A DNA stretch of 64,000 nucleotides, from positions 24,696-88,695 of the forward strand of contig JAGALS010000059.1 in NCBI GenBank assembly GCA_017625065.1, in the 5' to 3' direction. Position numbers and translations under genes: made by a program. The notes beneath the pieces are model-generated. The model did no database searches and was not told where the DNA came from. It saw only the letters and a program-made list of their open reading frames with translations. This DNA comes from Clostridia bacterium. GTDB lineage: Bacteria; Bacillota; Clostridia; Oscillospirales; CAG-272. Shown one piece after another: positions 30,607 to 35,684 of this stretch (its first letter is position 1; each line of letters starts with the position of its first letter).

Positions 30607-30683
30607 TGGTGGAGACAACTGGAATCGAACCAGTGACCCCTTGCATGTCAAGCAAGTACTCTAACCAGCTGAGCTATGCCTCC
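30607..30683 (-). tRNA. tRNA-Val (anticodon GAC), CCA encoded
   Basis: Hand-folded cloverleaf with acceptor GGAGGCA/TGTCTCC, anticodon stem CTTGC/GCAAG with loop TTGACAT, and T-loop GGTTCGATTCC. Confidence 0.92.
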
Positions 30684-30700
30684 ATATCGCAACGGATGAT

Positions 30701-30729
30701 ATTATAACACAAACCAAAACAAAAAGCAA
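30701..30729 (-). promoter_or_regulatory. Promoter for tRNA-Val
   Basis: On the minus strand: TTGCTT, 17 nt, TATAAT. Confidence 0.55.
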
Positions 30730-30861
30730 CCCCTTTTTCAAAATTTTTCAAAAAAATTGAAAAAACACAGAAAAGCAGAGCGTTCACAAAATATTCACAA
30801 AACTTTTTTGCGAAAAATCCCCCTTTTTTATATAAATTATGATAAAATTACATTAAAGTGG

Positions 30862-30902
30862 GGGAGAAGGTTTGATTCGCAAAATCAAACGCTTTTTCTC
30901 CC
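30862..30902 (+). promoter_or_regulatory. Leader hairpin upstream of the decarboxylase operon
   Basis: GGGAGAA...(GTTTGATT-cgcaa-AATCAAAC)...TTCTCCC nested stem, 28 nt before the start codon, with no clear U-tract. Confidence 0.4.
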
Positions 30903-30929
30903 TGTTAAACCGTATGAACGGAGGGTATT

Positions 30930-32246
30930 ATGAAAGAAAACAGCACAGCCGGCATCACGCGTCTCACGTCTTTTTTTGATGAGGGCACCTTTGTGGAGCT
31001 TGGGGCATACATCAGACGTCCCGGCAATGAAGAGACCCTTGAGGGTGTGGTGTGCGGATACGGTTCGATTGGCGGACGTCTTGTCTTTGCGTTCGCGCAG
31101 GACAGCACCTCAATGAAGGGCGCACTCGACGGCAGACATGCCGAAAAGATCGTCCGTACCTATGAAAAAGCACTTGCGGTCGGCGCGCCGATCGTTGGAT
31201 TTTTTGATTGCGCGGGCGCGGTCGTCTTCGACGGCGCGGCGGCGCTTGCGGGATACGGCACACTGTTGCGTACCGTTTCGGGCGCATCGGGCAAGATTCC
31301 GCAGATCGCCGTGATCAGCGGCACTTGCGCGGGCACGATGGCATCTGTCGCGGCACTGTTCGATCTGACCGTGACGGTCAAGGAAAAGAGCCGCTTGTAC
31401 GTATCCTCTCCCACATTGGTCGATGAGGAGATCGGTACCGCCGAGTATGCCTTTGCAAACGGCAATGCCGCGATCCTTGCAGACGGGGAGGGCGAAGCGC
31501 TGACGGCAGTGCGAAGGCTGCTTTCTTACCTGCCCGACAATGCCGAGCACGGCATTCCTGCGCTCGCTACTGCCGATGACCCCGGCCGCGCGCTTGCGAT
31601 CGGCTCTCGCTGCACCGCAAGGGAGGCGCTTGACGCCGCTGTGGATGCGGGCAGCTTTTATGAGGTGCTTGGCGGCTATGGCGATGCCGTGATCGCGGGG
31701 CTTGCCTCGATGGGCGGTGTTTCCGCCGTCGCGCTTGCCATGGACGGTGAGCTGACCCTTGCTTCTATTGTTAAAATGCGCCGCATGATCGCGTTTGCAG
31801 ATGCCTTTGGCCTGCCCGTCGTCACCCTTGTGAATGCAAGCGGTGTTGCGGTGTCTGCCACCGATGAGGGCGCGCTTGCCGCGGAGCTTGCCGCCCTTGC
31901 CAAGGTGCAAGCGCGTGCAAAAGCACCTCGCGTGACCGCTATCGTCGGTGACGCCGTGGGCGCGGGCTTCATTTTTGGTGGCTCCCGTGCGCTTGGTGCC
32001 GACCTTGTGTTGGCGTTGCCCGATGCCGAGATCGCCGCACTCAACGCAAGCGCCGCTGTGGCATTCCTTTGGAATGACCGCATCACCCCCGAGCTCACGC
32101 GCGAGGCGCTGGAAAAGGAATGGCGAAAGACCTGCGCTACTGCCGAGTCCGCCGCCGCCACGGGCGAGGTCGACGACATCGTTGCCCCTGCCGAGCTGCG
32201 CGCACGCCTGATCGCCGCGCTCTTTATGCTGGCGAACAAGAGGTGA
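30930..32246 (+). CDS. Acyl-CoA carboxyltransferase-domain protein (MmdA/GcdA/PccB-like, divergent and short)
   Basis: Two carboxyltransferase half-domains are recognisable (VCGYGSIGGRLVFAFAQD..., VTLVNASG...). At 438 aa it is shorter than canonical homologs of about 510 aa. Confidence 0.75.
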   Translation: MKENSTAGITRLTSFFDEGTFVELGAYIRRPGNEETLEGVVCGYGSIGGRLVFAFAQDSTSMKGALDGRHAEKIVRTYEKALAVGAPIVGFFDCAGAVVFDGAAALAGYGTLLRTVSGASGKIPQIAVISGTCAGTMASVAALFDLTVTVKEKSRLYVSSPTLVDEEIGTAEYAFANGNAAILADGEGEALTAVRRLLSYLPDNAEHGIPALATADDPGRALAIGSRCTAREALDAAVDAGSFYEVLGGYGDAVIAGLASMGGVSAVALAMDGELTLASIVKMRRMIAFADAFGLPVVTLVNASGVAVSATDEGALAAELAALAKVQARAKAPRVTAIVGDAVGAGFIFGGSRALGADLVLALPDAEIAALNASAAVAFLWNDRITPELTREALEKEWRKTCATAESAAATGEVDDIVAPAELRARLIAALFMLANKR

Positions 32247-32247
32247 T

Positions 32248-32610
32248 ATGATGATCAATACTGCACTTGCTATGAGCTTTGGCGAGCGTGCCGCATATGC
32301 GGGCAAGGTCTTTCTCATCGGCGTTTTGACCGTCTTTGCCGCGTTGGTCGTTTTGTTTCTCGTTTTAGTACTGTTCCGCAAATTTGTTGCTTACTTTAAC
32401 GGCGAGGATCTGGAGGTCGAGGCAAAGGAACCGGCACCCACGCCTATCGCGACTCCCGTGCCTGTGGCACAAGCCGCAAGCGACGATGCGCTGATCGCCG
32501 TGATCACCGCAGCCGTGGCGGCAGCACTTGCCGAGGAAAACGGTGGAGCCGTTCCGGGATTCCGCGTCGTTTCCTTCCAAAAGATCTCTACTGTATCAAA
32601 TAGAAAATAA
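32248..32610 (+). CDS. OadG-family small membrane subunit (Na+-decarboxylase gamma/delta-like)
   Basis: N-terminal TM helix and an Ala/Pro-rich tail, in the position between carboxyltransferase and biotin carrier. Confidence 0.65.
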   Translation: MMINTALAMSFGERAAYAGKVFLIGVLTVFAALVVLFLVLVLFRKFVAYFNGEDLEVEAKEPAPTPIATPVPVAQAASDDALIAVITAAVAAALAEENGGAVPGFRVVSFQKISTVSNRK

Positions 32611-32626
32611 GAAAGGGTAAAAGAAC

Positions 32627-33031
32627 ATGAAAAGCTATCGTATTACCGTAAACGGTGTTGCATATAACGTAACTGTTGAAGAAACCGGCGCAACGGCTCC
32701 CGCCGCAGCCCCCACCCCCGTAGCGGCTCCCGCTCCCGTAGCAGCGCCTGCTCCCGTTGCAGCGCCCGCCCCCGCGGTTGCTCCCGCGGCTGCTCCTGCT
32801 CCCGCAGGCCCCGCAGGCGCGACCACTGTGAATGCGCCTATGCCCGGTACCATCGTCCGCGTGAACGTGAAGCCGGGCGATGCCGTCAAGAAGGGTGATG
32901 TGCTTGCCGTGCTTGAGGCAATGAAGATGGAAAATGACATTTGCTCTCCCGCAGACGGAACGGTTGCCACCGTTGCCGTATCCCAGGGCGCTTCTGTTGC
33001 CACCGACGAGGTGCTGGTGACCCTGAACTAA
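32627..33031 (+). CDS. Biotin carboxyl carrier protein (biotinyl domain with Ala/Pro linker)
   Basis: EAMKMEN biotinylation motif and a long (AP)n linker. Confidence 0.88.
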
Positions 33032-33044
33032 AAAGGGGAGTGCC

Positions 33045-34226
33045 ATGTTAGAAAGTATTCAAAATTTCCTGGACAGCACGGGCTTTTCCTTGCTTTTCGG
33101 GCAGGACGGTAGCTGGCGGACCGTTTTGATGTTCCTCATCTCCGCTGTGCTTGTCTATCTTGCGGTGGTGAAGAAGTATGAGCCGCTGCTGCTCTTGCCG
33201 ATCGCCATCGGTATGCTGCTCACGAATCTGCCCGGCGCGGAGCTTTTCCATCCCGAAATGTTCCTCACGGCAGGGGATATCAGCTACAGCGACGTTTTGC
33301 ATAACGGAGGCCTGATTGACTTCCTTTATATCGGCGTCAAGCTCGGTATTTATCCTTGTCTTATTTTCATCGGCATCGGCGCGATGACCGATTTCAGCCC
33401 CTTGATCGCCAATCCCAAGAGCCTGCTCATTGGTGCGGGCGCGCAGCTTGGCGTGTTCGTGGCGTTTGCCTTAGCGCTCATAACGGGCTTGTTCACGCCG
33501 CAGGAGGCGGCAGCCATCGGTATCATCGGTGGCGCGGATGGCCCCACGGCGGTGCTGACCGCCAAGACGCTGGCACCTCAGCTGCTTGGAGCCATCGCCA
33601 TTGCGGCGTATAGCTATATGGCGCTGATCCCCATGATCCAGCCCCCGTTTATGAAACTGCTCACGACCAAAAAGGAGCGCGCCATCCGCATGGATACGCT
33701 CCGTCAGGTCTCCAAGCTTGAAAAGGTCTGCTTCCCGATCCTTGTGACCGTGGTGGTTTGGCTGATCGTGCCTGCCGCCGTGCCCTTGATCGGCTGCTTG
33801 ATGTTCGGTAACCTGCTCAATGTCAGCGGTGTGACCGACCGCCTCTCCAAGACCGCGCAAAATGAGATGATCAATATCATCACGATCCTGCTCGGTGTGT
33901 CGGTGGGCGCTACCGCAACGGCAGAGAACTTCCTCAGCGTGCAGACGCTTGCCATCATCGGCTGCGGTCTTGCCGCCTTCTGCGTTTCTACTGTTGGCGG
34001 ACTGCTCACAGCAAAGATCATGTGCTACGCGACCAAGGGGAAGATCAACCCCCTCATCGGTTCTGCGGGTGTTTCCGCTGTGCCGATGGCGGCGCGCGTT
34101 TCCCAGAAGGTCGGACAAGAGACCGACCCCACAAACTTCCTTTTGATGCATGCAATGGGTCCCAACGTGGCGGGCGTCATTGGCTCCGCCGTAGCGGCAG
34201 GCGTGTTCCTGTCGTGGATGTGGTAA
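33045..34226 (+). CDS. Sodium ion-translocating decarboxylase beta subunit (OadB/MmdB/GcdB family)
   Basis: Polytopic membrane protein of 393 aa with family-typical sequence (GGADGPT, MGPNVAG). Confidence 0.9.
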   Translation: MLESIQNFLDSTGFSLLFGQDGSWRTVLMFLISAVLVYLAVVKKYEPLLLLPIAIGMLLTNLPGAELFHPEMFLTAGDISYSDVLHNGGLIDFLYIGVKLGIYPCLIFIGIGAMTDFSPLIANPKSLLIGAGAQLGVFVAFALALITGLFTPQEAAAIGIIGGADGPTAVLTAKTLAPQLLGAIAIAAYSYMALIPMIQPPFMKLLTTKKERAIRMDTLRQVSKLEKVCFPILVTVVVWLIVPAAVPLIGCLMFGNLLNVSGVTDRLSKTAQNEMINIITILLGVSVGATATAENFLSVQTLAIIGCGLAAFCVSTVGGLLTAKIMCYATKGKINPLIGSAGVSAVPMAARVSQKVGQETDPTNFLLMHAMGPNVAGVIGSAVAAGVFLSWMW

Positions 34227-34244
34227 TTTGAATGAGGTGAAACT

Positions 34245-35642
34245 ATGTCTAAAGTAAAGCTTACAGAAACCGTACTCCGCGATTCGCATCAGTCCCTGAT
34301 CGCGACGCGTATGACAACCGAGGAAATGCTGCCCATCCTTGAGAAGATGGATGCCATCGGCTACCACTCTCTTGAGGCGTGGGGCGGTGCGACCTTTGAT
34401 TCCTGCCTGCGCTTCTTGCACGAGGACCCTTGGGACCGTCTGCGCAAGATCCGCGACAAGGTGAAAAACACCAAGCTGCAAATGCTGTTCCGCGGTCAGA
34501 ACATTCTCGGATATCGCCATTATTCCGATGACGTCGTCGAATATTTCGTACAAAAGTCGATCTCGAACGGCATTGATATCATCCGTATTTTCGATGCACT
34601 CAACGACCCCCGCAACCTGCAAACTGCGGTCAATGCCACCAAGCGCGAGCAAGGACACGCGCAGGTCGCGTTCTCCTACACGACGGGCCCTTGCTACACC
34701 TTGGAGTATTATGCAAACTACGCCAAGCAGCTTGAGGAAATGGGAGCCGATTCGATCTGTATCAAGGATATGGCGGGCCTGCTCAAGCCCTTCGAGGCAT
34801 ATGAGCTTGTCAAGACTCTGAAATCTTCTACGAGCCTGCCCGTTCAGCTGCATACCCACGCCACCGCAGGTCTTGCTTCTATGACGTTGCTCAAGGCGAT
34901 CGAGGCGGGTGTCGATATCGTGGATACCGCGATCTCCCCCTTGTCGATGGGTACCTCTCAGCCCCCCACAGAGCCGCTGGTCGCAACCCTCGCGGGCACC
35001 GAGTGGGATACGGGCATTTCGCTGGAAGCGCTCGATGAGATCACCCGTTATTTCGATCCGTTGCGTGAGAAGTATCTTGCAAGCGGTCAGCTCAACCCCA
35101 AGGCGCTGAAGGTCGACGTCAATGCGCTTCTTTATCAGGTTCCCGGCGGTATGCTTTCCAACCTGATGAATCAGCTTGCCGAGGCAGGGAAGGCAGACCT
35201 TCTGCCCGAGGTGCTTGCCGAGGTGCCGCGCGTGCGCGCCGACGTGGGCTATCCCCCCTTGGTCACGCCTTCCTCGCAGATCGTGGGTACGCAGGCGGTG
35301 TTTAACGTGTTGATGGGCGAGCGCTATAAGACCTGTACCAAGGAATTCAAGGGTATCGTCCGTGGCGAATACGGCAAAACGCCGATGCCCATTGATCCCG
35401 AATTTACAAAGAAGATCATCGGCGATGAGGAGCCGATCACCTGCCGCCCCGCGGACCGTCTTGAGCCCGAGCTGGATGCGCTGCGCGAAAAGATCGCAGG
35501 GTATATCGAGCAGGACGAGGACGTGCTGTCCTACGCGCTGTTCGAGCAGGTCGCCGTCAAGTTTTTTGAGGCACGTAAGGCAAAAAAGTACGGCATTGAT
35601 GCCACCTCTGCCGACGCCGCCCTTGGCGTGCACAGTGTTTAA
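34245..35642 (+). CDS. Oxaloacetate decarboxylase alpha / pyruvate carboxylase B / transcarboxylase 5S-type carboxyltransferase (no biotinyl domain)
   Basis: HMGL-like TIM barrel start LRDSHQSL. At 465 aa it ends before any AMKM motif. Confidence 0.88.
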   Translation: MSKVKLTETVLRDSHQSLIATRMTTEEMLPILEKMDAIGYHSLEAWGGATFDSCLRFLHEDPWDRLRKIRDKVKNTKLQMLFRGQNILGYRHYSDDVVEYFVQKSISNGIDIIRIFDALNDPRNLQTAVNATKREQGHAQVAFSYTTGPCYTLEYYANYAKQLEEMGADSICIKDMAGLLKPFEAYELVKTLKSSTSLPVQLHTHATAGLASMTLLKAIEAGVDIVDTAISPLSMGTSQPPTEPLVATLAGTEWDTGISLEALDEITRYFDPLREKYLASGQLNPKALKVDVNALLYQVPGGMLSNLMNQLAEAGKADLLPEVLAEVPRVRADVGYPPLVTPSSQIVGTQAVFNVLMGERYKTCTKEFKGIVRGEYGKTPMPIDPEFTKKIIGDEEPITCRPADRLEPELDALREKIAGYIEQDEDVLSYALFEQVAVKFFEARKAKKYGIDATSADAALGVHSV

Positions 35643-35650
35643 TAATCAAA

Positions 35651-35684
35651 AAAAGCGGAGATGCCAAACGGCATCTCCGCTTTT
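35651..35684 (+). terminator. Intrinsic terminator (copy 1 of an identical 34-bp hairpin)
   Basis: AAAAGCGGAGATGCC-aaac-GGCATCTCCGCTTTT. Confidence 0.85.

Follow-up and report, generated by a model that had tools for sequence, protein, structure and literature searches.

Na+-pumping decarboxylases and the transcarboxylase are textbook biotin enzymes that are treated as separate machines, and the operon described here joins their parts. It lies at positions 30930–35642 of a 64,000-nt stretch of Clostridia DNA (hereafter the window, from the window genome) and consists of five plus-strand genes, encoding in order a short acyl-CoA-type carboxyltransferase (hereafter CT), an OadG-like membrane anchor, a biotin carrier, an OadB-type membrane subunit and a 5S/OadA-type carboxyltransferase (hereafter 5S). 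Why would an operon for an oxaloacetate-driven Na+ pump carry a second carboxyltransferase, of the acyl-CoA type, and is that subunit a working enzyme? A sequence-only reading of the window had proposed that, with one carrier and both transferases, the complex could decarboxylate two substrates through one pump or act as a membrane-associated transcarboxylase. The reading that we favour, at a probability of roughly 45%, is that the operon encodes an oxaloacetate Na+ pump fed by phosphoenolpyruvate (PEP) carboxykinase, the soluble head of which keeps CT as a 12S-derived core, an adaptor or regulatory subunit left from a transcarboxylase. We read CT as a retained core or adaptor because it has lost about half of the residues that are invariant in canonical enzymes, it evolves fast, and neither a methylmalonyl-CoA nor a malonyl-CoA pathway was detected in the window genome or in many others. 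That CT works as a second enzyme is less likely than that it is a structural relic of a transcarboxylase, and the possibility that it is a non-catalytic scaffold, also raised in the sequence-only reading, is now slightly favoured, as we infer from the evidence below.

The gene order, the two distinct carboxyltransferases, the single carrier and the single Na+ pump module that had been read from the sequence were all borne out by the open reading frames (ORFs) and by matches to Pfam and NCBIfam models, and neighbouring ORFs are separated by only 1–18 nt. OadB matched PF03977 with 516 bits and TIGR01109 with 478 bits, over a cut-off of 190.6 bits, and is 62–83% identical among orthologous loci. 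The slowest-evolving protein of the operon is 5S (67–87% identity among loci), which matched the NF008985 model, 'oxaloacetate decarboxylase subunit alpha', with 782 bits, over the 718-bit cut-off, and, as had been noted, has no biotinyl domain of its own. Invariant in the 5S alignment are R12-D13-x-H15-Q16-S17, K174-D175-M176 and H203-T204-H205; among these, D13, K174, H203 and H205 are presumably metal ligands, as in OadA and 5S structures.

The separate carrier aligns to positions 480–594 of the full-length OadA model PRK14040, that is, to its last ~115 positions. Its alignment shows a conserved N-terminal peptide (MKxYxVTVNGxxYxVxVEE), an Ala/Pro linker and a biotinyl domain with the EAMKMEN motif picked out earlier, which contains the MKM site. 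We take the VTVNG..Y.V.V part of the N-terminal peptide to resemble the assembly peptide of the 1.3S carrier. The OadG-like protein has an N-terminal transmembrane helix, a Pro/Ala linker and a conserved C-terminal ITAA...FRVVSF tail, as seen in an alignment of 37 sequences. In the window genome, the operon carrier was the sole biotin-domain match, the 5S gene is likewise single, and the biotin ligase BirA was found (G000:C81). The parts that define a split-alpha Na+-translocating oxaloacetate decarboxylase were all found: OadB with an OadG-type anchor, 5S with its metal-site residues, and a carrier with a biotin ligase. Judged from its sequence, the operon looks to encode a complete enzyme of this kind, and the decarboxylase itself looks functional.

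A probable source of oxaloacetate was also present. A GTP-dependent PEP carboxykinase was found in the window genome and in 19 of 22 genomes of its family, and an ATP-dependent PEP carboxykinase (ATP-PEPCK) in two of the other three; the window genome was searched for ATP-PEPCK and for the alpha subunit of citrate lyase, and neither was found. In the scheme that we propose, the GTP-dependent PEP carboxykinase would make oxaloacetate from PEP, and 5S would move the carboxyl group of oxaloacetate onto the biotin of the separate carrier. The probable docking site for the N-terminal peptide of this carrier is the C-terminal tail of the OadG-like anchor. OadB would then decarboxylate the carboxybiotin and export Na+. 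The likely flux, if its direction is as we suppose, would run from PEP through oxaloacetate to pyruvate and yield GTP and a Na+ gradient. CT would be a descendant of the 12S-type acyl-CoA carboxyltransferase of a transcarboxylase that kept the two-domain fold, and, as a putative member of the complex, it would serve as the core or adaptor of a transcarboxylase-like head, possibly as an acyl-CoA-sensing subunit, and not as a second productive head.

CT matched PF01039 over residues 10–437 with 228 bits. Its score on TIGR01117 (mmdA) was 248.8 bits, below the cut-off of 998.8 bits required for membership, and a canonical MmdA from the same order scored 928 bits. AlphaFold2 modelling of the 438-aa subunit returned an intact two-domain 12S/PccB fold (pLDDT 90.8, pTM 0.90), with two crotonase-fold domains in the model and TM scores of 0.89–0.92 to human PCC beta, 12S and PccB at 29–32% identity. 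Canonical chains run to about 510 aa; CT lacks about 35 residues at the N terminus and about 25 in the linker.

The sequence-only reading had suspected that CT is catalytically altered, from the motifs DSTSMKGAL and GTCAGTMAS, both of which are present (the first within QDSTSMKGAL at CT residues 57–66, the second at 131–139). We placed the canonical sites on CT through an alignment to 1VRG, by which PccB G182-G183 correspond to CT G135-T136, PccB G419-A420 to A345-G346, and PccB D422 to I348. At oxyanion hole 1, G135 is conserved and the next residue is S, T, M, L, A, G, N or H across the family. The change from glycine to threonine in GTCAGTMAS is not disqualifying by itself, because an active enzyme, AccD4, carries Gly-Ala at this hole; backbone amides could still serve. 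At oxyanion hole 2, A345-G346 follow an invariant G344, and the canonical form of the hole was not found in CT. The C-domain motif PGxxPG...E.GG..HGAK has been lost, with P304, P308, G309, Q312, H319 and G320 each kept in <10% of the family; a proline stands at the position of PccB Gly419 in 7 of 22 members of the split architecture described below (type II), and the glycine of PGF is gone in the f13 group.

Losses of this kind extend across the protein. Six canonical CTs from the order share 134 invariant columns. The window CT keeps 65 of them and has lost 69, which supports and extends the suspicion of altered catalysis. When 119 members of the short family were compared over these columns, only 33 columns were kept in at least 90% of members: 23 of the 53 that fall in the N domain, and 10 of the 73 that fall in the C domain. 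A core has nonetheless been retained: 31 residues are invariant over 60 diverse short members, among them G135, G344 and a number of polar residues of the canonical enzymes, and near-invariance extends to K282, D358 and further canonical positions. Mean identity to the window proteins across 70 orthologous loci was 43.9% for CT, 55.5% for the carrier, 72.3% for OadB and 78.1% for 5S, and CT evolves about 2.5 times faster than its operon partners.

A scan for the CT family, with one genome per species, identified at least 558 loci, and we read the gene order in the best 80, all from distinct species. The order CT-OadG-carrier-OadB-5S was kept in 80 of these 80 loci, wherever the contig extends far enough. 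Because the same order recurs in all of these related loci, the five-gene arrangement is not due to chance, and the question of how far it extends, left to a survey by the sequence-only reading, is answered by a widespread distribution. There are more than 900 CT relatives of 430–455 aa, almost all in uncultured gut and rumen Clostridia and often named 'hypothetical protein' at NCBI. Of 301 genomes of the window's order, 89 match the CT family profile, a count that includes a few canonical CTs such as the 508-aa MmdA of genome G300, and about 28% carry the short CT. The MmdA of G300 scores ~326 bits on the family profile, equal to true short members, which makes the bit score unfit as a classifier, and CTs were therefore classified by sequence motifs and gene context.

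The loci fall into distinct architectures. Type 0, OadG-carrier-OadB-5S with no CT, is found in sister genomes of the same family, where OadB is ~64% and 5S ~60% identical to the window's. Type I is the five-gene operon of the window, and type II is split, with an OadG-OadB pair lying apart from the CT-carrier-5S locus. A canonical variant, in genome G082 of the same order, combines a CT of 516 aa (PF01039, 617 bits) with a carrier and 5S. Type II occurs in the cultured species [Eubacterium] siraeum DSM 15702 (split loci L096/L135), Clostridium facile (L095/L136), Massilioclostridium coli and Anaeromassilibacillus senegalensis (L105/L137), and the system is therefore experimentally accessible. 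A tree built with FastTree places the canonical CTs in a single clade, type II in another (20 rows) and type I in a third (97 rows), with a few switches between types I and II. The CT-carrier-5S triad is an evolutionarily stable unit and in type II stands without OadG and OadB at the same locus. From these comparisons the five components travel together, and CT has been added to one oxaloacetate decarboxylase lineage without being required by the pump: sister genomes within the family have the OadG-carrier-OadB-5S operon and no CT.

What keeps CT in place can be approached through genus g6 of the window's family. In its two species (G096 and G232, both 98% complete), OadB, the small biotin carrier and BirA were not found. 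Both species keep an intact CT, an OadG-like gene (P0161, with the FRVVSF tail) and strongly degenerate 5S-like genes, beside an aminotransferase (loci L082, G096:C3, and L083, G232:C22, e.g. L083:1879–6387). When the two species are compared, CT is 63% identical, the OadG-like protein 51%, the 5S-like protein 45% and the aminotransferase 89%; these are given as identities only, since synonymous sites are saturated and dN/dS is not usable. The glycine motifs of CT are retained in g6 even though no carrier, BirA or OadB was found there, and motif retention is therefore no proof of biotin-dependent catalysis. Judged from these gene contents, CT can apparently persist without biotin chemistry and, in the g6 lineage at least, would be maintained for some other reason.

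The pathways of the host genomes offered little for a second carboxyltransferase to act on. Methylmalonyl-CoA mutase (PF01642) was found in 1 of the 301 genomes of the order and not in the window genome. The sole mutase genome, G300, encodes at one locus (L094, G300:C48:1–7239) a succinate CoA-transferase, the large and small parts of the mutase, MeaB, an epimerase and its canonical MmdA. We rejected a role for the operon as a methylmalonyl-CoA decarboxylase or in a propionate pathway on this distribution and because no supply of methylmalonyl-CoA was found. Nothing in the operon or in its flanks pointed to a glutaconyl-CoA route, and no genome-wide search for one was made.

Malonyl-CoA fared no better. 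CT is the only PF01039 match in the window genome, where no FabF (ketoacyl synthase) and no biotin carboxylase were found and no fatty-acid synthase was seen. Across the 89 CT-profile genomes of the order, FabF and biotin carboxylase are both present in 38, FabF is present and biotin carboxylase was not found in 9, and neither was found in 42, including the window genome; where both are missing, malonyl-CoA is therefore left with no visible source or sink. We checked five of the nine genomes with FabF and no biotin carboxylase, and accD and accA lie inside the fab cluster in all five; these genes are thus present where fab genes exist without accB and accC, and the short CT is therefore not needed for malonyl-CoA. 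On both counts we rejected a general supply of malonyl-CoA for fatty-acid synthesis. For the earlier proposal of two substrates sharing one pump, the outcome is mixed: the parts are present and sharing of the carrier is plausible, but the acyl-CoA activities that it proposed have no metabolic basis in these mutase and FabF counts.

Several points weigh against reading CT as a non-catalytic core or adaptor. Purifying selection acts on the CT family across hundreds of species (at least 558 genome loci), and CT keeps the hole glycines G135 and G344 together with the polar N-domain residues D17, E23, K73, D93, Q125 and D145. Catalysis by carboxyltransferases of this type leans mainly on backbone amides, so that loss of side chains need not abolish activity, as the Gly-Ala of active AccD4 illustrates. 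If the pump of sister genomes works with no CT, a scaffold is not obviously needed. The g6 genus is a single derived lineage whose case may not hold for the CT family as a whole, and the window genome is only 88% complete. Finally, CT, carrier and 5S have the composition of a transcarboxylase, canonical forms of which are held to make malonyl-CoA in Clostridium thermocellum and Caldicellulosiruptor bescii (PMC5414155, PMC7071700).

Among the alternatives, the one that survives best is essentially the idea of the sequence-only reading, namely that CT is active on acetyl-CoA or propionyl-CoA and that the complex is a membrane-bound hybrid of transcarboxylase and decarboxylase. Carboxybiotin derived from oxaloacetate would then be used either for Na+ pumping by OadB or for carboxylation of an acyl-CoA without ATP, and in reverse a carboxylated acyl-CoA would drive the pump. 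This is an idea that we take seriously and consider doubtful. Conservation of the CT-carrier-5S triad in both type I and type II speaks for it, as do the intact fold near 12S and PccB, the invariant G135 and G344, the near-invariance of K282, D358 and other canonical positions, the tolerance of Gly-Ala at hole 1 in AccD4, and the occurrence in the same order of the canonical CT-carrier-5S set of G082, a type of cluster assigned to malonyl-CoA synthesis in the two species just named. An active CT would also fit sharing of the carrier where the operon's is the only one found and accD and accA need one.

Structure prediction bears on assembly, under this idea as under the favoured reading. We predicted a four-chain complex with CT as the partner of 5S, carrier residues 1–30 and OadG residues 72–116. 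It gave an ipSAE of 0.48 (runs 0.05, 0.48 and 0.52), to be read against a calibration in which 58 of 80 solved complexes and 2 of 110 mismatched pairs passed the mark and in which passing scores at 0.60 or under comprised only 7 of the 80 solved complexes together with both passing mismatched pairs. The best control gave 0.00, and the score fell to 0.00 once an unrelated protein replaced 5S; agreement of contacts between runs was at least 94% and partner pLDDT at least 89. The prediction lends weak support to a CT-5S contact.

Against an active CT stands the lack of a source or sink for its product in the mutase count (1 of 301) and in the 42 of 89 genomes, the window genome included, where neither FabF nor biotin carboxylase was found. 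All five tested genomes with fab genes and no biotin carboxylase have accD and accA, and the short CT occurs alongside a canonical CT in genomes G244 and G047. The protein itself has lost 69 canonical invariants and the C-domain PGxxPG...HGAK motif, the residue after G135 is free to vary among eight kinds, and CT evolves much faster than its partners.

A broader version of carrier sharing is suggested by relatives that lack accB and accC. In G206 and G255, which belong to the window's family and have the five-gene operon, the fab clusters run FabF-(FabZ)-AccD-AccA-AMP-ligase, with no accB and no accC (L158, G206:C2:78000–92000; L159, G255:C11:1–12000), compared with the usual FabF-AccB-AccC-AccD-AccA of genome G154 (L160, G154:C27). 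The operon carrier is the only biotin-domain protein found in G206, G255 and G298. Because it is the only carrier found in G206 and G255, yet accD, accA and fab genes are present there, sharing of the carrier is plausible, and this suggests that AccD/AccA in such relatives may be fed carboxybiotin made from oxaloacetate by 5S, giving malonyl-CoA without ATP. Extended to the whole system, the carrier would be a shared 'carboxyl bus' that splits the CO2 taken by 5S from oxaloacetate three ways: to Na+ export by OadB, to a short CT active on an acyl-CoA or on a novel acceptor, and to AccD/AccA of the relatives lacking accB and accC. We judge the full scheme to be unlikely; if true, it would mean that ATP-free carboxylation, malonyl-CoA synthesis included, is wired directly to a membrane ion pump in a large proportion of gut Clostridia.

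CT might instead act on a non-classical substrate, either another thioester or a carboxyl donor or acceptor that is not a CoA ester, and so provide a second fuel for the pump or a new CO2 acceptor. The family has its own conserved replacements (QD...KGA, DSxGA, GxCxG, and a glycine in place of R340 in 97% of members), its better-conserved N domain is the acyl-binding side in canonical enzymes, and it persists in genomes lacking all classical pathways. However, positions adjacent to the active site vary widely, which speaks against one defined new pocket, and CT is retained in g6, where carrier and biotin ligase were not found. Conserved flanking genes, sought as a clue to the substrate, gave none: flanks vary among the 80 loci, and the best clusters, an amidohydrolase and a helix-turn-helix regulator, occur in only 11 of them. 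We regard a new substrate as improbable. That CT is a functionless, decaying relic kept only because it comes first in the operon, as its fast evolution, its loss of canonical motifs and the working of CT-less pump operons in sister genomes might imply, is very improbable given intact ORFs of constant length (about 430–455 aa) in hundreds of species, 31 residues invariant across 60 diverse members, a confident AlphaFold2 model and 63% identity between the two g6 CTs at saturated synonymous divergence.

Coordinates of the operon genes and their flanking signals in the window, with the basis of each assignment.
Feature	Position	Strand	Basis and remarks
A/T-rich putative promoter region	about 30700-30860		sequence reading; upstream of leader hairpin
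Leader hairpin	30862..30902	+	sequence reading; between putative promoter region and ribosome-binding site
Ribosome-binding site GGAGGG	30921-30926	+	sequence reading
CT, short acyl-CoA-type carboxyltransferase, 12S/PccB/MmdA fold, 438 aa	30930..32246	+	PF01039, TIGR01117, AlphaFold2 model
OadG-like membrane anchor, 120 aa	32248..32610	+	PF04277 OAD_gamma, 51 bits; 37-sequence alignment
Biotin carrier (OadD/MmdC/1.3S-like), 134 aa	32627..33031	+	PF00364, 79 bits; NF047903 MmdC, 128 bits
OadB-type Na+-translocating carboxybiotin decarboxylase, membrane beta subunit, 393 aa	33045..34226	+	PF03977, TIGR01109
5S/OadA-type oxaloacetate-pyruvate carboxyltransferase, 465 aa	34245..35642	+	NF008985; biotinyl and association domains absent
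Intrinsic terminator closing the operon	35651..35684	+	15-pair stem and T tail; 9 nt past the last stop

The operon is bounded upstream by a tRNA gene on the minus strand (30610–30683; Rfam RF00005, 68 bits), which lies directly upstream of the promoter region. The operon leader matched no Rfam family, and no known RNA or riboswitch was found in it. The terminator is a perfect palindrome with a 15-bp stem and has the form of a terminator on either strand. Outside the window, on a 2-kb contig, the window genome carries a second, orphan OadB paralogue (G000:C74:769–1824) that is 46% identical to the operon OadB. This paralogue is also found in relatives, with no fixed neighbours there. We considered it as a dedicated partner of CT and rejected it, since its neighbours vary and second copies are common in CT-less families too.

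In the literature we found no paper describing the five-component system and no biochemical or structural study of it, and no oxaloacetate decarboxylase that has an acyl-CoA carboxyltransferase in addition appears in a 2020 review of the PEP-pyruvate-oxaloacetate node (PMC8100219). The order is a major one among the Clostridia of gut and rumen, and roughly a quarter of its sampled genomes carry the operon. An inactive CT would clearly exemplify how the core of a 12S-type enzyme can become a pseudoenzyme subunit of an ion pump; with an active CT, these bacteria could split CO2 derived from oxaloacetate between energy conservation and ATP-free carboxylation. The genes of this operon should not be taken as markers of methylmalonyl-CoA decarboxylase or of a propionate pathway in gut metagenomes, because the mutase that the pathway requires is so rare in the order. 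New here are the order-wide contingency of CT with fatty-acid synthesis, biotin carboxylase, mutase and OadB, the type II arrangement in cultured species, the g6 remnant, and the fab clusters without accB and accC.

Among known systems, the membrane oxaloacetate decarboxylase of Enterococcus faecalis, a split OadA/OadB/OadD/OadH enzyme (PMC6193673), is like the pump part of the window operon in having a biotin-less carboxyltransferase (OadA), a separate carrier (OadD), a Na+ pump (OadB) and a small OadG-like subunit. Unlike the window operon, it has no 12S-type carboxyltransferase and sits in a citrate-lyase cluster; in the window genome, where the citrate lyase search was negative, oxaloacetate probably comes from PEP carboxykinase. 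Veillonella MmdABCDE, a Na+-translocating methylmalonyl-CoA decarboxylase, supplies the best hidden Markov model (HMM) relatives of CT (mmdA), the carrier (MmdC) and the OadG-like protein (MmdD), and has a similar gene order with a membrane beta subunit. The window system differs from it in the CT score of 249 of 999 bits, in the extra 5S subunit, and in its host genomes, with mutase and epimerase found together in 1 of 301.

The Propionibacterium transcarboxylase consists of a 12S hexamer, 5S dimers and a 1.3S carrier (structures 1ON3, 1DCZ). Its three kinds of protein are likewise encoded together here, and the CT model superimposes on 12S with a TM score of 0.91. A transcarboxylase has no decarboxylating subunit, whereas OadB is present in the window operon, or beside OadG elsewhere in type II. 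The window unit thus adds an OadG/OadB pump, its 12S-like subunit is about 70 residues shorter with about half of the canonical invariants, and the methylmalonyl-CoA pathway was not found in the window genome.

Putative malonyl-CoA-forming transcarboxylase clusters have been noted in C. thermocellum (Clo1313_1523-1526; PMC5414155) and, under FapR regulation, in C. bescii (B5X54_RS07175-07190; PMC7071700). Like the window operon, they combine an acyl-CoA carboxyltransferase, a small protein, a carrier and a protein resembling 'oxaloacetate decarboxylase' alpha. By annotation they have no OadB, their carboxyltransferases are of the methylmalonyl-CoA type, and they serve fatty-acid synthesis. The window operon has a remodelled CT in a genome where no fatty-acid synthase was seen, and a canonical counterpart of these clusters within its order is the CT-carrier-5S set of G082.

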